The notes beneath the pieces were generated by a model. It ran no database searches. It worked only from the letters and a program-made list of their open reading frames with translations, and was not told where the DNA came from. A DNA stretch of 16,818 nt from an uncultured archaeon. Its GTDB lineage: Archaea > Asgardarchaeota > Lokiarchaeia > Sigyniarchaeales > SOKP01. The stretch lies in assembly GCA_964493715.1 (NCBI GenBank), contig CAZBPC010000074.1:1-16818 (forward strand), written 5' to 3'. The translations under genes and the position numbers were made by a program. This document shows, in pieces, positions 2,577 through 14,962 of this stretch. Position 1 is the first letter of the stretch; each line of letters starts with the position of its first letter.

Positions 2577-4481
2577 TTATAAAAGATATCTCGTTAAACC
2601 AAGTTCTTTTAATTTATGGGTGGAAGGAGTCCCATTTTCTTTATCCCAACCACGTTCATCATAATAATCATCCAGTAATTGTTTAGCAATATCCCTATTA
2701 ATTTTTACATTTCCATAGAAATCGTAAAATTCGAGTTTATTTTCACCATATTTTAAAGGTGTGAACCAATTTTTTGGGAATGCGTCATCTTGCCGAGAAA
2801 AACCTTCCTTAACATTCATTAATTTCATTAGATTCCATGATCTCTCAGCTGCTAGTCTTATTTCATCAACCTTTAAATTGAGTCCAGTTATTGCATTATA
2901 AAAAGATGTAACGAGTTCCAAACTATAAAATCTGTTCATCTGTGCTCGAGCACATAATCCAAATGATGTTAATATTGTATACCAATCTTCTGAATATCTG
3001 GTTAATCTACCAACATTTATATTCATCTCTTTTTTGGGTGGTCTAAATAACCTATCTACAGCGCTCTCAGGGATTCCCATTCTATTAAAGTGGGATTTCA
3101 TTTTTTCTATTCCTCCTCCTGCACCAACATAAGTTGGGGATCCTCCTGAAGCAACATGCGCCCCTTTCGGATTAACCACCTGCTCAAATTCCATAGTTCC
3201 TAGCTTTAAAAACCTTGGTTCAAAAACGACATCTAAACCTTTTATAGTAAGCATTTCTTCTTCCAAATTAGCTTTTAAACGTGTGATTTCTTTCCAACCA
3301 TCAGCTAAGATATTCCCAATCCCATTTCTATAGGTTATGATCTCAATTAAATGTTCATAAGTATTATAGTCCTTTTTCCATTCAAATCCTAAATCTTTGT
3401 TTGTAAGAGAACCTTGATCGATCATTCTTGATATAAAATCAAATAATGAGGTAATTGTGAGAGAATCTAATCCATATCGACTGATTACGTCAAATATTTT
3501 AATTGCTCGATCATAAGAACTTAAGCCATCAGAAGTGAACATCAAAAAGGGATTAATTATTGATGAAGTGTAATTCAGCAGTCCTTCAAATTTTCCTTCG
3601 CGTATCTCAAGAATATCCTTATCAGCCATTGGGCAACTAGGGCATCCAATTCTTCTGAATTTTATATTTTTAAGATAATTTCGATCACTACATTGTCTTG
3701 CTTTCTTTTTTTCGCCTTTTGCGTTTAATATCATTCCAACGGGTAAGCTTCTCAACATTCCAAGTTCAATCCATGAATCTCTATGTGGATATTTCCGAAC
3801 TCGATCAATAAAACTATCATATAATTTATTAAATTGTTTTGGGTTAGCAATTTCGATTCCTTTTGAACCTTTAACTACAATTGCCTTTAAGTTTTTTGAT
3901 CCCATTATTGCACCTAAGCCTCCCCGACCTAAAGTTGAAGTTTTATCTATTAAAGTGATTGCTCCAAATACCAAATTTTCTCCCGCTTGACCAATTGCTA
4001 TCACTCCGCAATCATCGTATTTCCTCCACATCAAATTGGTTGTTTCAACAATATCTAATCCCCAAATTTTGTCTGCATTGACTAAATCGATATGATCATC
4101 AAATATGTATAGATATTTTGGTTTATCTGCTTTTCCAGATAAAATTATATGGTCATAACCAGCTTGTTTTAGATGAAATCCGAAGCTCATTCCACCACAA
4201 ACGCTGGCAACTGCTCCTGTAGCAGGAAATTTTGAGAACCCAGAAGTTCTAGATGCTCCGGGCATTATAGTACCTACCATTGGTCCTGTACCAAGTACAA
4301 TTATGTTATCAGGGGAAAGAGGATTCGTTCTGGGTTTCAATCGTTCAGCTCCCAGAAAGAAATTCATACCCATACCACCAAGGAATTTCTTGACATCTTT
4401 GAGATCTTCTCCAGTAGAGGAAATTTTCTCATCTGATAGGTTAATTTCTAGTATTTTACCAGTATATCCATACCAATTCAA
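2577..4481 (-). CDS. aor: Aldehyde:ferredoxin oxidoreductase (W/Mo-bis-pterin AOR family), divergent
   Basis: AOR-family motifs GYTGKILEINLS, LKQAGYDHIILSGKA, IGQAGENL, GRGGLGAIMGSKNLKAIVV and C-terminal LLDDYYDERGWD..G.P....LKELGL. The TTG start overlaps the ferredoxin TGA (TTGA 4481-4478) and has an SD-like GAGGTGA 7 nt upstream. Confidence 0.88.
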   Translation of the reverse strand: MNWYGYTGKILEINLSDEKISSTGEDLKDVKKFLGGMGMNFFLGAERLKPRTNPLSPDNIIVLGTGPMVGTIMPGASRTSGFSKFPATGAVASVCGGMSFGFHLKQAGYDHIILSGKADKPKYLYIFDDHIDLVNADKIWGLDIVETTNLMWRKYDDCGVIAIGQAGENLVFGAITLIDKTSTLGRGGLGAIMGSKNLKAIVVKGSKGIEIANPKQFNKLYDSFIDRVRKYPHRDSWIELGMLRSLPVGMILNAKGEKKKARQCSDRNYLKNIKFRRIGCPSCPMADKDILEIREGKFEGLLNYTSSIINPFLMFTSDGLSSYDRAIKIFDVISRYGLDSLTITSLFDFISRMIDQGSLTNKDLGFEWKKDYNTYEHLIEIITYRNGIGNILADGWKEITRLKANLEEEMLTIKGLDVVFEPRFLKLGTMEFEQVVNPKGAHVASGGSPTYVGAGGGIEKMKSHFNRMGIPESAVDRLFRPPKKEMNINVGRLTRYSEDWYTILTSFGLCARAQMNRFYSLELVTSFYNAITGLNLKVDEIRLAAERSWNLMKLMNVKEGFSRQDDAFPKNWFTPLKYGENKLEFYDFYGNVKINRDIAKQLLDDYYDERGWDKENGTPSTHKLKELGLTRYLL

Positions 4482-4717
4482 TTTTCATTCACCTCAATAA
4501 TTTCTAGTGCTCCATATAAACAGTGACGCGCACAATGTCCACATTTTATGCAATCTTCTGAAAATTCGATTTTTGGGGTTAATTCATAGATATCATGTAA
4601 TTCAATTCTAGAAAAAGCTGGCAAGTATTTCCCATTATATAGAAAGGAGCAAGAAAGTTGGCAGATTCGACAACCCACACACTTTTCTGGATGGATTAGA
4701 ATTTCATAAACTCCCAT
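4478..4717 (-). CDS. Small 2x[4Fe-4S] ferredoxin-like protein, probable AOR partner
   Basis: CVGCRICQLSC and CIKCGHCARHCLYGAL motifs; 4-nt overlap with aor suggests translational coupling. Confidence 0.9.
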   Translation of the reverse strand: MGVYEILIHPEKCVGCRICQLSCSFLYNGKYLPAFSRIELHDIYELTPKIEFSEDCIKCGHCARHCLYGALEIIEVNEN

Positions 4718-4737: not shown

Positions 4738-6240
4738 TTATATATTAACAATTACTCCTTTTTCCCTTATTTTTTTTATTTCTTTTGGAATATCCGTAAA
4801 TTTATTAAAATTAAGATATAAAGTTTTCAGATTGGCTAAGGTTTCGATTTCATTTGGAATTACTTCTATTTTATTTCCCCACAGATTTAATATCTCAAGA
4901 GATTTCAGAGAACCAATCCATATAGGAATCTCTGTGATATTATTCCAACTAAAATTCAGCGATTTTAGATTTTTTAGATTTGAGATACAAAAGGGTATTT
5001 TTTGAAAATGATTATTCCTAAAGTTTAGTAATTCTAATGTCTCTAATAAACTAAAATTTTCAGGGAGGTCTTTTAATTGATTATCATGAATTGAAAATTG
5101 TTTTAAATTTTTTAAATTTCCGATCCAAACAGGTAATTCTTTAATTTGATTACGTTCAAGATTTAGTTCAATTAATACGTTTAATTTTTTAATACAATCG
5201 GGAATATGGTCAAAATTGTTCCATCCAAGTTCAATTTGAGAGAGTGATACCAAAGAATCTATATCTATTAGAAAATTGGAGAATTGATTATGATGTAAAT
5301 CTAACAATTTCAGTTTCTTTAAAAAACCTATAGAGGAAGGAAGTGTATTAAGAGAATTGTCTCTCAGAATCAATGTTTCAAGATGATTTAAATTATTAAT
5401 GGTTTCAGGAAGAGATTTTAATCTGTTAGATTTAAGATTTAGCACTTTCAATTTTGTGAATACTGAAATGGAATTAGGTAATTTATAGATATCATTATAA
5501 CTTAAATCTAAATATTCAAGTTGATTAACTCTATTTATTACTTCTGGAATTGTCTTAAGATGATTATTACTCAAATCTAATCTTTCTAAAAATGAAAGAG
5601 ACAATATTGCTTCAATGGAGTTAAATAATTTGTTGAAGCCTAAACCTTGATAATCTACATTTGATAAATCTAAATCAGTAATGGCACCATTCTTATTAAG
5701 AGAAAATATTATATGACCAAATTTAAGTTTTAATGAACAAATTACAAGATAATTTATTAGAATTTCTGCTAACTCAAAATTATTCAAATTTTTTAAATCT
5801 TGTATTTTAACTATATCTTTTAGGTTATATTTATATTTCTTCTTATAGAATTCATTAATTTTCTTAACTAAAATTGACCGAGTCTTTTCATTTTCCATTA
5901 CTGCTAAAGAGTTTATTATCCCTATCTGAACTGCAAGTGACTTTTCGTTTTGTAGTACCCAATTAATTGGTGGAATCGCATGCTCGATGAATAATGTAGT
6001 TAAAATTTTAGCTGATTGAATCCTTATTTCCTCACTATTATCCGAAATTAAAAGATTTTCTAAAAATGTGAACAATCTTTTAGATTTATCATCAATTTTC
6101 TCTAAAACTTTAATAGCTTCTAAACGCGTATCAATATTTTCGGAATTATCAATGTTGGTTATTAACAAGTCGATGGCAGAAGCTTTGTCTAAATTACCAC
6201 TTTGAACATCATTTAAAATAGCAGTTGGAGTGAATGGCAT
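4738..6240 (-). CDS. HEAT-repeat + LRR protein, paralog 3 (500 aa; 12 x 23-aa LRRs)
   Basis: TRLEAIKVLEKI...LENLLISDNSEEIRIQSAKIL, then 12 LRRs colinear with paralog 2 (both contain LKSLEILNLWGN). Confidence 0.92.
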   Translation of the reverse strand: MPFTPTAILNDVQSGNLDKASAIDLLITNIDNSENIDTRLEAIKVLEKIDDKSKRLFTFLENLLISDNSEEIRIQSAKILTTLFIEHAIPPINWVLQNEKSLAVQIGIINSLAVMENEKTRSILVKKINEFYKKKYKYNLKDIVKIQDLKNLNNFELAEILINYLVICSLKLKFGHIIFSLNKNGAITDLDLSNVDYQGLGFNKLFNSIEAILSLSFLERLDLSNNHLKTIPEVINRVNQLEYLDLSYNDIYKLPNSISVFTKLKVLNLKSNRLKSLPETINNLNHLETLILRDNSLNTLPSSIGFLKKLKLLDLHHNQFSNFLIDIDSLVSLSQIELGWNNFDHIPDCIKKLNVLIELNLERNQIKELPVWIGNLKNLKQFSIHDNQLKDLPENFSLLETLELLNFRNNHFQKIPFCISNLKNLKSLNFSWNNITEIPIWIGSLKSLEILNLWGNKIEVIPNEIETLANLKTLYLNFNKFTDIPKEIKKIREKGVIVNI

Positions 6241-10076: not shown

Positions 10077-11384
10077 TTACATTTTAATGGAATATGGGAA
10101 TTCTTTGGTTAATTCTATTAGATTCTGATCTGGATCATTAAATTTAATGTAGAAAGAGATTGTAAAATCTCCTGCTTCGAGCGGTTTAATACTCAATTCC
10201 CATTTCATTTCTTCGTTTTTTCGGAGAGAATAAATTTGCTTATTAATAGTTCCCCTCATAACTTTAAGTTCTTCTGGGAATTCAATATCTATGTTTACGT
10301 CGAGCGCTTCTCCATCGCTCTTGTTCTCAATAAGGACTTCTAAAGGAAAACTTTGTCCAATAAGGGGGGGTCTTAAGTTTTTGAGAGAAAGATCTAAAGA
10401 AGGAGGGGGAGAAATCAAGGTTGGTATAATTACATCGGTATTATAAACAAAAGTAAGAATATTATCTAACTCAAATGTTAAAGAAAATGGTCCAATATAA
10501 GGATCATCCATTTGAAAATGTGGTTTCAGCACGAAATCCAATTCAATATCTGAGCCAATAGGTATATCTATAGGTTGTTGAGGTTTTTTATTTACTGAAA
10601 GATTATCAGATAGTTTGAAATGGATTTCAGTTATTTTTATGCTTTGTAATTGATGTTCGAAGAACTTATCATTGGATATTTGAGATAGAACCTTTGTTTT
10701 TACTGATAATTTTATATTTATAATATCATTAGTGGTATAAGAGTTCTTATCTAACAAGAAAGAGGAAGTCAAATTTAAGAGAGAATTAGCTAAAAGTAAT
10801 GTCTTTTTCAATAGATTATTTTCTATTAGAGTGAGTTTATAATTATCTGCATTCTCTCTAATCTTATCAAGTAAGGTTTTATTGTTGTTTCGTAACGCTA
10901 TAGTTAAATCAGTAACGAGTTGAATTAAAGGAGTATTTTTAAAAAAATCACTATCAACTTTCTTCTGGTATTTTTTTATGAAATCAAGTCCCTCTTCACG
11001 TTTCGATTCTATAGATGAACATAAATAGCTCAAAACAGGGAATAAAATATAATGCAATTCTTTACCAGAAGAATTTTTTTCCTTAGAAATTATATTTAAA
11101 GAATCTCTATAAATTTTTTTAGCTTCACCATAATTTTTTGCATACAAACAACAATCTCCCGCTAATCTATTAAATGTTACTGCGTCCCCGTATTTTTCCA
11201 ACTCAATCTGAGTTTGAGCACCATAGAGATAACAATTTTTAGCGCTTTCATACTCTTCCAATTTCATAAAGCTATTTCCTGCTTGGTAAAACGCTTTACC
11301 AGATTTTTTAAATAATCGTGCCTTGAAAAAATTTTCCGCTTTAGCTAATTGGTTTTGAGCATCAGTTCTTGGATCTTTTCCCAT
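10077..11384 (-). CDS. TPR/alpha-SNAP-like helical repeat protein with C-terminal Ig-like beta-sandwich domain(s)
   Basis: N-terminal helical repeats with small-residue/aromatic TPR pattern (AFYQAGNSF, AKNCYLYGAQ, DAVTFNRLAGDC, EAKKIY). C-terminal GQSFPLEVLIENKSDGEALDVNIDIEFPEELKV...KPLEAGDFTI resembles CARDB/DUF11 Ig folds. ATG 11384 is preferred over TTG 11405. Confidence 0.75.
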   Translation of the reverse strand: MGKDPRTDAQNQLAKAENFFKARLFKKSGKAFYQAGNSFMKLEEYESAKNCYLYGAQTQIELEKYGDAVTFNRLAGDCCLYAKNYGEAKKIYRDSLNIISKEKNSSGKELHYILFPVLSYLCSSIESKREEGLDFIKKYQKKVDSDFFKNTPLIQLVTDLTIALRNNNKTLLDKIRENADNYKLTLIENNLLKKTLLLANSLLNLTSSFLLDKNSYTTNDIINIKLSVKTKVLSQISNDKFFEHQLQSIKITEIHFKLSDNLSVNKKPQQPIDIPIGSDIELDFVLKPHFQMDDPYIGPFSLTFELDNILTFVYNTDVIIPTLISPPPSLDLSLKNLRPPLIGQSFPLEVLIENKSDGEALDVNIDIEFPEELKVMRGTINKQIYSLRKNEEMKWELSIKPLEAGDFTISFYIKFNDPDQNLIELTKEFPYSIKM

Positions 11385-11474
11385 AATGCTTTCATTAACT
11401 TCCAAATAAATTGATTAATTGTTAAATTAAGTGAAAGATCAATTTTTATCTTTTTTCAAAATAATAAGAATAAT

Positions 11475-11502: not shown

Positions 11503-12108
11503 TTAAAAAGCCATTAAAATTAATATGAAACCTACCATTATGATAGTGCCACTAACTGCAGATACCCAAGTAAAGATTACAAATCCAATGATGAGTACAA
11601 CCCACCAAGTGTATGGTACTTTGATATCGACTTTATCAAATAGTGTTAGAAGTAAAATGATAGCAAATATAATTCCAACAATCGCAATTGCTATAGATCC
11701 GCCCATAATAAACATTATTGACTCATAGATTAACCAACATGCTCCAATGAACGCGACTATTTTTGAAGCAGTATAAGACTTCTTCTGAACTAATATCTCA
11801 ATTAAAGCTGCAGTGATTACTAAAATTCCCGCTAAATAAGAGGGTCCTACCAAATATTCAAAGAGAACTAGTAAGAATCCAATAATCAATAGAATCCACC
11901 AAATATAAGGAATATTTAGTTTCTTAAAATCAATTATTGCTAATGAATCAAAAACGACGAAGGCAATAATCAAGCCAATTACTCCCAACAAAATAGCTAA
12001 AACGTTTGAAGTGTAGAAGTAATTTATGCTATCTTTGATTAGGACTAATGTACCTATGAGAGCAACAACTCTGGAGGCGGTAATTACAACTTTAGAGCTT
12101 TCACCCAT
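11503..12108 (-). CDS. Uncharacterised integral membrane protein, about 8 TM, two internal ~100-aa repeats
   Basis: Strongly hydrophobic. The halves align: TASRVVALIG/TASKIVAFIG and IPYIWWILLIIGF/VPYTWWVVLIIGF. ATG 12108 is preferred because the upstream GTGA(T) looks like an SD; the ORF track starts at GTG 12117. Confidence 0.85.
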   Translation of the reverse strand: MGESSKVVITASRVVALIGTLVLIKDSINYFYTSNVLAILLGVIGLIIAFVVFDSLAIIDFKKLNIPYIWWILLIIGFLLVLFEYLVGPSYLAGILVITAALIEILVQKKSYTASKIVAFIGACWLIYESIMFIMGGSIAIAIVGIIFAIILLLTLFDKVDIKVPYTWWVVLIIGFVIFTWVSAVSGTIIMVGFILILMAF

Positions 12109-12202
12109 ATTTATCACTTTTTATAAATTTTATATCCTAAATCTGATTAGAATTAGAATATTAGTATAGCTAGAATTTTTCGTATTTAAGACTACCTATT
12201 AA

Positions 12203-12223
12203 AAGTTTGATAGTCTCAAACTT
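12203..12223. repeat. Perfect 8-bp inverted repeat AAGTTTGA-N5-TCAAACTT
   Basis: Read directly from the sequence; lies between the mvhD 3' UTR U-tracts and the promoter region of the 8-TM gene. Confidence 0.6.
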
Positions 12224-12224
12224 C

Positions 12225-12240
12225 AAAAAATTAAAAAATA
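12225..12240 (-). terminator. Oligo-U terminator of the hdrA-mvhD transcript
   Basis: TATTTTTTAATTTTTT on the minus strand just downstream of the SECIS-like hairpin, which would put the hairpin inside a 3' UTR of about 90-100 nt. Confidence 0.55.
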
Positions 12241-12257
12241 AGGGTTAAAACATATAT

Positions 12258-12327
12258 ACCGAAACCAATGCTTTATGGTTAGTCCTCTGGTGACTAGAAT
12301 TTTCTCACGAGAGTCATACTTATCGGT
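12258..12327 (-). ncRNA. Eukaryote-like (Loki-type) SECIS element, cis-acting in the mvhD 3' UTR
   Basis: mRNA: ACCGA UAAG U AUGA CUCUCGUGA GAAAAUUCUAG UCACCAGAG GA CU AACCA UAAAGCAU UGGUU UCGGU. AUGA (12317-12314) and GA (12284-12283) form a kink-turn core, with a 9-position upper helix (one C-C mismatch), an apical loop containing AAAA, and an outer ACCGA/UCGGU stem. It starts at the first base after the stop of a gene with in-frame UGAs. Confidence 0.85.
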
Positions 12328-12789
12328 TTATTTCTTTACTTTCGTTTTGACATCTTCCTCCTCTTTTTTAGAGTTGGATTGTCTCACGGGATTGGTACCT
12401 AAATTTTCAATTACATCTGAAATACGGGTGACTTCTTGTTGAAATCTTTGACCTTCTGCGGCACTACAGTGGAACATTTGGACTCGTTCGGGATTTAGTC
12501 CTGCTGTTTTTAGGATTTCTTTAGTATATTCGACATTTTTTGCTGCTATGAGATTTCCTGTTTCATAATCGCACTCGCCTTCATATCATCCTGCGACAAT
12601 AATACCGTCAGCTCCCTTTCCTATGGCTCTCATCATCAGACTTGGGGTGACTCTACCCGTACAATTAATTCTAATCGGTCTGATGGTTGCAGGATATTGT
12701 GCCCGGATTGTTCCAGCCATATCTCCCGCGCCATATCCTCATTTCCAGCACATGAACGCAATAATCTTTACTTGGTCTTTTACAGTCAT
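12328..12789 (-). CDS. mvhD: F420-non-reducing hydrogenase iron-sulfur subunit D (MvhD/VhuD/FlpD family), selenoprotein with 2 Sec (U17, U68), 153 aa; missed by the ORF track
   Basis: Manual translation: MTVKDQVKIIAFMCWK-U-GYGAGDMAGTIRAQYPATIRPIRINCTGRVTPSLMMRAIGKGADGIIVAG-U-YEGECDYETGNLIAAKNVEYTKEILKTAGLNPERVQMFHCSAAEGQRFQQEVTRISDVIENLGTNPVRQSNSKKEEEDVKTKVKK-TAA. TGAs at 12741-12739 and 12588-12586 fall on the Cys of the family CxxC and GCxxGxCxY motifs. SD-like GAGGT lies in the 15-nt gap after hdrA. Confidence 0.95.
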
Positions 12790-12804: not shown

Positions 12805-14775
12805 CTATATTTCTTCAAGAATTGCATCTAATTGTTTTTCATATTGTGGTTCACGATAATAGCTAAGTGTAATAGCTTCGGAAGGACAATTAGCCAAACA
12901 AGACCCACATCCACGACAGAGAATCTCATCTACATCTGCTCCATCTGTTTTTAAAGAAATCGCATTATATGGACAATTTAATTCGCATAATCCACATTTT
13001 GCACATTTTTCCTTATCCACAGTAGCTCGAATGAGCATTATTCTAAATTTATCTTTTCCCATTATGCGAGTTACAGATGTTGCGGCAGCTCTTCCTTGGG
13101 AAATAGACTCTGAAATTGATTTAGGCCCTTGAGCTACTCCAGCAAGCACGATACCTGGAATTTTCGTGTCAATTGGATTTAACCGTGAGTGAAATTCCTT
13201 GAAAAAGCCATCTTGACTGGTTTCAAGCTTTAACATCCTCCCAATTTCCTCAACTCCTTTTGCAGGCATCATTGCGCAAGATAATACGACCAAATCATAC
13301 TCAATTTCCTTTAAACCAGAATTTGATAGGGTATTTTGTAGTATCACTTTAAGATTATGGGTTTCTGGGTCTTCGTAGATCTTCGAAACATTTGTTCTGA
13401 TGTATTTTATACCTTCCTTCCTTGATGCGGTATAGTATTCTTCATAGTCTTTTCCTGCTGCTCGAATATCCATATATGCTACGCTGATATCTGCATCGGG
13501 ATAGTGTTGTTTGATTAATTTCGTATTTTTAATTGAGATCATGCAACACACCCCAGCACTGCAATATGTTTGTTTATTCAAATCTCGTGAACCAACACAT
13601 TGTATGAATAATATACGTTTTGGAGTTTTCCCGTCTGATGGTCTAGCAAGATGTCCTACAGTTGGACCATTAGGAGCAAGTAATCTTTCAAGCTTCATTT
13701 GAGTTATAACATTAGGATACACGTTATAACCCAAATATCCTGTTTCAGGTTCATATTCATCCCATCCTGTTGCTACGATAATTGTACCCACTTTAATTTC
13801 TACTATCTCATCTTCTTGATTGAAATCAATAGCATTTACCTCGCAAGCTTTTTCGCATAATCCGCATTTTATACATCTATTCATATCAATTTGAGCTTTT
13901 GAAGGAACAGCTTGAGCAAATGATACATAAATTGCTTTCCTACTATTCATGCCTTCATTAAATTCGTTATATCCATAAGAAGGACAAACCTCAAAACACG
14001 CGCCGCATCCATTGCAATCATTATTAACATACTTAGCAAATTTTCTAATTTTAACATCGAAATTTCCTACAAATCCAGATACTTCTTCAACTTTACTATA
14101 AGTATAGAGATTCAAATTGGGGGTCCGAGCTGCTTGAAGCATGACCGGCCCAAGAATTCAAATGCTACAATCATCAGTTGGGAAAGTGCGGTCAAGCATC
14201 GCCATTTTTCCTCCAATGGTGGGACTTTTTTCGACAAGATGTACTTCAAATCCCTCATCGGACAGATCAATTCCAGCACTTAATCCGGAAACACCACCCC
14301 CAATAATTAAAGCTCGTTTTGTGATGTCAACTTCTTTTACAAGTATTTTCTCTAACGTTGCAGCGCGAGCTACTCCAGACTTGATTGCATCTTCTGCAGT
14401 CTTTTGAGCTCCCGGTTTATCTTGCCGATGTACAAAACTTGCATGTTCTCGAATATTAACAAATTCTAAAAAAGAAGGATCAATATTCATTGCTTCAAGA
14501 ACGCTTTTAAAAACTGGTTCATGAGTTTTAGGGGTACAAGATGCGACAACGAGTCGATTTGCATTACTCTCGATCATTTTCTCTTTTATAAACTCCGCCC
14601 CCGGTTCAGTGCATAAACTTATATAGTCTGAGGCATCCACGACATTTGGAAGTTTCTTGGAAAATTCTGAAAGTGCTTTCGTGTCAATAATTTCAGCGAT
14701 ATTAATTCCTCAGGCACAAATGCTAACGAAAATCCGTATCTCTTCAGTATTTTTTGTAATCTCTGCTTCTACCAT
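12805..14775 (-). CDS. hdrA: Heterodisulfide reductase subunit A (FAD/Fe-S electron-bifurcating subunit), selenoprotein with 2 Sec (U22, U206), 656 aa; split into two ORFs in the track
   Basis: One frame from ATG 14775: MVEAEITKNTEEIRIFVSICA-U-GINIA (TGA 14712-14710; family CxCGxNI), VASCTPKTHE, NIREH, IIGGGVSG, LDRTFPTDDCSI-U-ILGPVM (TGA 14160-14158; family DCSxCILxP), ferredoxin insert, IIVATG, CVGSRD...YCS...CCM, GVAQGPK and two C-terminal CxxCxxCxxxCP motifs; ends at TAG 12807-12805. Confidence 0.96.
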
Positions 14776-14962
14776 TGCATATTCTACCTATTTTATTTTA
14801 GATATCCTCCTACATTAATTCCATACTATTTCAAAAATTTTTTACATTTAAAATATCTTATGAGAAAAAAGTAATTTTAAATCAAAAATCTTTTATATAT
14901 CTTTTATAAGTTATCACATTAAAAATCATTTTATATTAAAATAAAAGTCACTGGTTATAATA

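Follow-up and report, generated by a model that had tools for sequence, protein, structure and literature searches.

A closing stem and a side hairpin form a conserved three-way junction beneath the predicted kink-turn core of the SECIS element downstream of hdrA-vhuD in Asgard archaea

The models published for the selenocysteine insertion sequence (SECIS) elements of Asgard archaea end at the core, the upper stem and the apical loop. The closest described system is the lokiSECIS of Lokiarchaeota. Its core consists of an AUGA, a 9-bp stem, an 11-nt loop in which the first five positions are rich in A and the final G is preceded by A, and a GA (Mariotti et al. 2016, PMC4989117). One such element lies downstream of vhuD, is common to hdrA and serves as many as six UGA codons within about 2 kb; the authors expected it to contain a kink-turn (K-turn), failed to find SBP2 and proposed that the binder might be an unknown protein or else a constitutive ribosomal component, for instance L30 (PMC4989117). 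The class was later extended to more than 400 Asgard genomes, as the Asgard eSECIS-like type I, with models limited to the core, the upper stem and the apical loop, and with family-specific lower stems for frhA and selD and none reported for hdrA/frhD in the main text (Huang et al. 2024, PMC11227280). According to both studies, Asgard genomes lack SBP2 (PMC4989117, PMC11227280). Here, we describe an element of this kind in a 16,818-nt stretch of DNA from an uncultured archaeon of the Lokiarchaeia (contig CAZBPC010000074.1 of assembly GCA_964493715.1), hereafter the window, in which positions 12258-12327 of the minus strand carry the published core on top of a three-way junction built from a closing stem (P1) and a side hairpin (P3). 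The same three-way junction is found in 66/66 complete orthologous vhuD 3′-untranslated regions (3′-UTRs) of Asgard metagenome-assembled genomes (MAGs).

The gene immediately upstream of the element encodes, with UGA read through, a protein of Pfam family PF02662 (FlpD; E = 4e-43), which is assigned from its sequence to VhuD/MvhD, the delta subunit of methyl-viologen-reducing hydrogenase. Two in-frame UGA codons interrupt it, codon 17 (12741-12739) and codon 68 (12588-12586), both at cysteine positions. Upstream of vhuD, across a gap of 15 bases, hdrA specifies a protein with Pfam Fer4 (4Fe-4S) and FAD/NAD-binding domains and contains two further in-frame UGA codons (14712-14710 and 14160-14158), so that the farthest of the four lies about 2.4 kb upstream of the SECIS. 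The gene order and the in-frame UGA codons together show that the 3′-UTR in which the element lies belongs to a bicistronic hdrA-vhuD unit containing four UGA codons. HdrA proteins with multiple selenocysteine (Sec) residues, at five published positions, have been reported in Lokiarchaeota (Mariotti et al. 2016, PMC4989117), and the UGA at 14160-14158, near residue 200, is taken to be the canonical HdrA Sec position described there. The N-terminal UGA (14710-14712, minus strand) lies within a motif read as C-A-U-G-I-N-I.

Against the published description, the window element has the AUGA before its upper stem (helix II) and the GA after it, a stem of nine positions with one C.C mismatch, and the 11-nt A-rich loop GAAAAUUCUAG ending in AG, and its P1 begins at the base after the stop codon of the UGA-containing vhuD (Table 1). 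On these sequence features the element is a lokiSECIS, or Asgard eSECIS-like type I, whose core was already published in 2016. The first-pass annotation of this DNA had proposed a SECIS with a K-turn, a short upper helix, a side hairpin and a closing stem following the UAA; each of these features is where it had been placed, base for base, the element directly follows an FlpD/VhuD gene with two UGA codons at cysteine positions, and every published feature of the Lokiarchaeota SECIS is present. The AUGA/GA core in Asgard archaea is not new, having been published in 2016 together with the suggestion of an L30-type binder. The annotation also put forward L7Ae or eL30 as a candidate binder and the side arm as a possible lineage-specific addition; every one of the 66 complete Asgard vhuD orthologs has this arm.

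Table 1. Positions of the hdrA-vhuD unit, the parts of the SECIS element and the tracts that follow it in the window (CDS, coding sequence).
Feature	Positions	Strand	Remarks
hdrA (heterodisulfide reductase subunit A-like) CDS	12805-14778	minus	stop UAG 12807-12805; translated with TGA = U
vhuD/mvhD (FlpD family) CDS	12328-12789	minus	153 residues encoded by 12789-12331; stop UAA 12330-12328
P1 closing stem, 5′ strand ACCGA	12323-12327	minus	pairs with 12258-12262; starts at the base after the vhuD stop
Junction linker and C-stem 5′ strand	12319-12322	minus	linker UA 12322-12321, then A12320, G12319
C-stem canonical pairs		minus	A12320-U12281, G12319-C12282
K-turn bulge, then G and A	12314-12318	minus	bulge UAU 12318-12316, then G12315, A12314; AUGA core motif 12317-12314
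Tandem pairs		minus	G12315.A12283, A12314.G12284
Helix II	12313-12305 with 12293-12285	minus	9 positions, 8 paired; C.C mismatch 12309/12289
Apical loop	12304-12294	minus	11 nt; A-rich, ends in AG
Core 3′ half	12281-12284	minus	G12284, A12283, then C12282, U12281
P3 side hairpin	12263-12280	minus	AACCA 12280-12276 with UGGUU 12267-12263; 8-nt loop 12275-12268
P1 closing stem, 3′ strand UCGGU	12258-12262	minus	directly after P3, no unpaired base
U-rich tracts	12225-12250	minus	UUUU 12250-12247, U6 12238-12233, U6 12230-12225; read from sequence

What the window element and its 66/66 orthologs add to the published lokiSECIS is P1 and P3. A side hairpin or three-way junction is not described in the main texts of PMC4989117 and PMC11227280, the SECIS supplements lying outside this search, and a 2026 review mentions no lower stem, hairpin, junction or kink. 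Literature searches on SECIS three-way junctions and on Asgard SECIS, kink-turns and L7Ae, judged by title or the start of the abstract, returned no such junction for an Asgard SECIS. Within that coverage, the junction base formed by P1 and P3 is apparently undescribed in print and represents a real refinement of the element.

Orthologs were collected by a VhuD protein scan of genome contigs, which gave 68 loci with 68-94% protein identity and, with the window, 69 sources. All but one of the 68 are labelled as Asgard or uncultured archaeal MAGs; the exception (JAWODV010000081.1), a contig of 4.2 kb that bears the label of a Kosmotogaceae bacterium MAG, carries an Asgard-type vhuD with two TGA codons and a full SECIS (53.9 bits) and is probably a mis-binned archaeal contig. 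Of the 65 fetched loci in which both vhuD Sec codons are readable, 64 have TGA at both, to which the window adds one more, and in L062, L063 and L067 the end of the alignment or a gap left one or both codons unread or misread. As in the published single-element arrangement, the element lies downstream of vhuD, and in 66/68 loci an HdrA match lies directly upstream of that gene. A covariance model of the full element, built from 26 in-register sequences and followed by realignment of all sequences, finds exactly one copy per source in 66 of the 69 sources, window included (E 5e-20 to 3e-7), and in the three sources without a match (L059, L066 and L067) the locus is cut by a contig end. No second SECIS was found by a core-only covariance model or a regex scan in 506 kb (the window and the 68 loci). 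In one locus (L056), the full model also matches 5408-5490 weakly (21.2 bits, E = 0.17), about 950 nt past the true element; this second match keeps the helix II 5′ strand, the A-rich loop and the 3′ half of P3 and P1, has lost the helix II 3′ strand, has no evident selenoprotein gene alongside, and looks like a decayed partial duplicate.

Three alignments underlie the pairing counts: A4, the model-fitted alignment of 64 distinct sequences; A1, made with MAFFT only; and A5, a gapless core alignment restricted to 11-nt loops, which covers 51 of 61 distinct cores. The covariance model and the realignment were made because the linker between P1 and the AUGA is 4 or 5 nt long, which puts the CCGA of P1 one column out of register in A1; for the same reason, RNAalifold misses P1 on A1 and predicts only helix II there, while on A4 it predicts P1, helix II and two P3 pairs. 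As A4 leans towards the model, the counts were redone on the MAFFT-only alignments.

On A4, helix II is 92.4% paired with double changes in eight of its nine pairs, a result that is unchanged on the MAFFT-only alignments (91.9% paired on A1). The position of the window's C.C mismatch (12309/12289) holds a standard pair in 61/64 distinct orthologs. P3 is 97.0% paired, with double changes in four of its five pairs, and still 86.2% paired with double changes in three of five on A1; one of its pairs occurs as five types (AU 43, UA 6, CG 5, UG 4 and GU 1 on A4). The four core pairs of P1 are paired in 100% of the 64 distinct sequences and are almost invariant, with compensatory variants in L045 (GCGA.../...UCGC) and L064 (UCGA.../...UCGA). 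The G-C pair under the 3-nt bulge forms in 64/64, and the second C-stem pair in 39/64, or in 33/51 on A5, where shuffles give 43.4 ± 5.9% and none of 500 reaches the observed value. The 'clean' two-pair C stem of the first-pass annotation is thus not general among the orthologs, the G-C pair being invariant and the second pair variable. The structure as a whole is 89.8% paired on A4, against 79.5 ± 0.5% in shuffles (0/500 reach the observed value) and 23.5-41.7% when the partners are slid, so that pairing and covariation lie above all 500 shuffles and every slid control. A mutual-information scan over all column pairs ranks helix II pairs and one P3 pair first and the second C-stem pair 7th, and gave no convincing long-range pair or tertiary partner of the P3 loop. 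A GNRA tetraloop in P3 was considered and rejected, as 0/66 minimum free energy (MFE) hairpin loops are GNRA and only a G followed by C or U is general. When the sequences are folded free of any alignment with the core constrained, P1 and an enclosed hairpin appear in 62/66, and in 54/66 without the constraint, compared with 517/3300 shuffled-flank controls. In the window itself, the three-way junction is both the MFE and the centroid structure in RNAfold. Across the orthologous vhuD 3′-UTRs, the AUGA/GA core is conserved and the side hairpin and closing stem are both conserved and covarying, which supports the first-pass annotation on these points.

Conservation of single bases follows the same outline. 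Invariant in 66/66 elements are the C-stem G, the U, G and A of AUGA, three loop A's, the last loop G, the G, A and C after helix II, the P3-loop G (12271 in the window) and the U opening the P1 3′ strand; the A preceding the UGA of the core is kept in 65/66, the CCGA of P1 is likewise retained in 65/66, and the base after the P3-loop G is C in 52 and U in 13 of the 66. The apical loop is 11 nt long in 57/66 elements and 12-13 nt in the other nine, and the unpaired columns beside the helices vary freely. The vhuD stop codon, by contrast, moves with respect to the RNA. It lies upstream of P1, as in the window, in 24/66 orthologs and in the linker in another 24 (UAG in 23, its G being the invariant C-stem G, and UAA in one); it is a UGA directly before the AUGA in four and the UGA of the AUGA itself in 14. 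The P1 5′ strand is accordingly non-coding in 24/66 and coding in 42/66, in which the vhuD stop overlaps the SECIS. Because CCGA is kept in a non-coding context and in two reading frames, inside a poorly conserved Lys/Glu-rich tail, although the coding context varies, the constraint on P1 appears to act at the RNA level. Where the P1 5′ strand is translated (42/66), the terminating ribosome would have to melt P1, and the junction would have to refold between ribosomes.

We consider it probable, at roughly 0.8, that the element is the single SECIS of the bicistronic hdrA-vhuD transcript, a member of the lokiSECIS class with a K-turn core over a P1/P3 three-way junction. Gene context, architecture, conservation and covariation were observed in this analysis; from them we infer Sec insertion activity, a binder and a role for P1 and P3. 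The predicted K-turn core comprises an invariant G-C and a variable second pair, an N-A-U loop, tandem G.A/A.G pairs, a non-canonical (NC) helix of nine positions and an A-rich 11-nt loop. Below it, instead of a helix I and an internal loop, there is a compact three-way junction, with a P1 of 4-5 bp and a P3 of 5-6 bp on the non-bulged strand. The folded element may recruit the Sec-specific elongation factor with Sec-tRNASec, either directly or through an L7Ae-family K-turn-binding protein, and this recruitment would recode the four upstream UGA codons. In this scheme, P1 and P3 would clamp and extend the canonical (C) helix of 1-2 bp so that the kink can form, and they could possibly offer an added recognition surface.

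A number of observations weigh against this reading. The fold energy of the window element is not unusual (z = -1.68), with 12/200 shuffles folding at least as well. Rfam yields no family at gathering score in the window and no SECIS family at E <= 10 in 12150-12400, and the matches at E <= 10 near the element (a CRISPR repeat, a microRNA, a PyrG leader and two small nucleolar RNAs) are noise. The alignment behind the main counts, A4, is fitted to the structure. P1 is so nearly invariant that its covariation comes from two sequences, L045 and L064; the three basal pairs of P3 hardly vary, the most frequent letters being retained in 58-59 of the 64 distinct sequences; and the second C-stem pair is unpaired in 25/64. 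Even with the core constrained, the junction is not the MFE structure in L026, L039, L040 and L042 (4/66), and in L026 a change disrupts P3. Kinship among the sampled sequences inflates the significance obtained from the shuffle controls, and greater weight is therefore given to the slid-partner controls and to the compensatory changes. Finally, when a lokiarchaeal vhuU.2 SECIS was tried in Methanococcus maripaludis, activity stayed at background (21.1 mU/mg, compared with 22.1 mU/mg in the no-SECIS control); this is the only reported test of a lokiarchaeal SECIS, and no Asgard SECIS has been proven to function. The case for a structure beyond chance is comparative, and is not one of single-sequence energy.

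The conservation of P1 and P3 goes beyond what pairing needs, and this leaves room for a different role of the junction, in which P1 and P3, instead of serving as a passive scaffold, together form a second sequence-specific module read by a dedicated SECIS factor, the archaeal Sec elongation factor or the ribosome, the bases read being CCGA/UCGG, the ACC/GGU at the base of P3 and the invariant P3-loop G. The P1 letters identical in 65/66, the near-constant basal P3 pairs noted above, the P3-loop G and the failure to find SBP2 in Asgard archaea all speak for such a module. The mutual-information scan, however, gave no tertiary partner for the P3 loop, and the limited divergence of the sampled genomes could also give strong conservation, so we regard the proposal as tentative. 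More speculative still, and in our view rather unlikely, is a combined version in which the element is a self-contained junction RNA: P1 and P3 with the loop G would act as a second docking surface beside the K-turn and so enable the element to dispense with SBP2, contacting the Sec elongation factor or the ribosome either on its own or together with an L7Ae-family protein, and the element would be a structural intermediate between the methanococcal vhuD SECIS and the eukaryotic SECIS. If true, this would account for the ability of a single element to serve four to six UGA codons spread across more than 2 kb of polycistronic mRNA.

The nature of the kink bears on the binder, because L7Ae folds standard K-turns and does not fold the k-junctions on which it was tried. 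The sequence signature of a standard K-turn is present, with a C helix, a 3-nt bulge, tandem G.A/A.G pairs and an NC helix; the -1b.-1n pair is G-C in 64/64 distinct sequences, L2 is A in 65/66 and L3 is U in 66/66, and the K-turn claimed in the first-pass annotation fits these invariant nucleotides (G, A, U, G, A / G, A, C). The 3b.3n pair is Watson-Crick or G.U in 36/66 elements, including the window (C.G), and according to the published folding rules this class does not fold in metal ions alone and folds on L7Ae binding. By the same rules, 18 elements are self-folding and 12 fall under no rule, a distribution that would mildly favour a protein-assisted or junction-assisted kink. The reported preferences of the two proteins differ, Snu13p favouring a closed 3-nt bulge whereas SBP2 favours a large internal loop; since the bulge here is closed, as Snu13p prefers, an L7Ae-type binder would fit better than an SBP2-type one.

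Could the element instead be a true k-junction, with a third helix stacked on the C helix, loop bases paired with connecting nucleotides and no response to L7Ae? In the k-junctions of the thiamine pyrophosphate (TPP) riboswitches and DUF-3268, the third helix is coaxial with the C helix, the connectivity is 2HS2HS4, and L1 and L1.1 are paired to two connecting bases inside the C/T coaxial stack (Wang 2014, PMC4005666; Li 2023, PMC10573300); the L7Ae of A. fulgidus did not fold the k-junctions tested and folds standard K-turns. The topology is shared, as P3 occupies the non-bulged strand, flanked by the GA and the P1 3′ strand, and joins P1 with 0-1 unpaired base, and an invariant G four positions 5′ of G1b together with the invariant C opposite recalls the c1:G(L1) pair of DUF-3268. 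The connectivity, however, is unlike that of TPP/DUF-3268: the invariant C directly follows A1n, one or two more variable bases (2-3 in total) come before P3, and the linker on the bulged strand measures 6-7 nt. The connectors were assigned from text descriptions, and that A1n runs straight into the T helix was inferred from the helix order of the TPP riboswitch. Membership of the Lilley-type k-junctions was rejected on this difference from 2HS2HS4, and a k-junction is in our opinion improbable. Because the invariant C directly follows A1n, like the -1n of a standard K-turn, the element is read as a standard K-turn with a C helix of 1-2 bp abutting a three-way junction.

The element stands at the extreme 3′ end of the operon, and U-rich tracts start 8 nt past P1 in the window, with comparable T-rich tracts downstream in many loci. 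Oligo-U is an archaeal termination signal, and the tracts after the element likely mark the transcript end. P3 and the tracts might therefore serve mainly in 3′-end formation or mRNA stability, unrelated to recoding and beside the SECIS by chance. We give this little credence, as P1 encloses both the K-turn arm and P3 and thus makes the three helices one unit, the distance from P3 to the core is fixed within 1-3 bases whereas the downstream sequence diverges freely, and the P1 5′ strand is kept even within coding sequence. That nothing functional exists beyond the published core, P1 and P3 being conserved by kinship or coding constraint, is scarcely credible and already largely refuted: related sequences may exceed shuffles without any structure, and P1 barely varies, but four of the five P3 pairs show double changes with up to five pair types, the P1 stems of L045 and L064 are compensatory, the slid-partner controls keep the relatedness and yet drop to the values given above, adjacent unpaired columns vary freely, and CCGA persists both outside coding sequence and in two frames.

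If the K-turn core over a P1/P3 junction is the functional unit, of about 70 nt, reporters, pull-down baits and binding assays designed around the core alone could lack parts that are required. Specific mutants also suggest themselves, with P1 swapped, P3 deleted or the P3-loop G altered, and the closed 3-nt bulge together with a 3b.3n class that usually needs protein to fold directs the search for a binder towards L7Ae-family proteins.

Beyond the element, the intergenic sequence at 12120-12250 (minus strand) contains, besides the U-rich tracts, an imperfect inverted repeat at about 12178-12215. Blocks of it are common to the window and its closest loci (L001, L004-L006 and L009) and extend to the start of the next gene at 12117; Rfam matches in this interval are noise only. 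This sequence is likely the terminator of the unit and the promoter of a downstream membrane-protein gene. The open reading frame that starts there (11503-12117, 204 residues) looks hydrophobic by eye, and neither it nor that at 10077-11405 (442 residues), both on the minus strand, has a Pfam match at E <= 0.001. Farther away, three genes on the minus strand (2-931, 996-2543 and 4738-6240) encode proteins that each unite HEAT repeats with leucine-rich repeats, and the genes of an aldehyde:ferredoxin oxidoreductase (2577-4481) and of a small ferredoxin (4478-4717) lie between them.

Set beside the systems that it resembles, the element shares with standard K-turns (Kt-7, U4 snRNA and box C/D) a 3-nt loop with U at L3 and a variable 3b.3n pair, and differs from them in a C helix of only 1-2 bp that leads straight into a three-way junction. 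With the eukaryotic type I SECIS it has in common the AUGA_GA non-Watson-Crick quartet, that is, the K-turn motif, unpaired A's in the apical loop, and a position in the 3′-UTR from which it would act at a distance on upstream UGA codons. Unlike the eukaryotic element, in which the core is followed below by helix I and a large internal loop, it closes its bulge with a G-C pair followed by the three-way junction, and its upper stem is shorter. The vhuD SECIS of Methanococcales and Methanopyrus, as described, is alike in its AUGA...GAC frame and enclosing stem, and no side hairpin is described for it; the main stem of the euryarchaeal SECIS has a GAA_A internal loop with G-C clamps, a loop that helix II, P1 and P3 of the window lack. 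With respect to the lokiSECIS itself, the gain is a refinement of a known element rather than a new kind of system.

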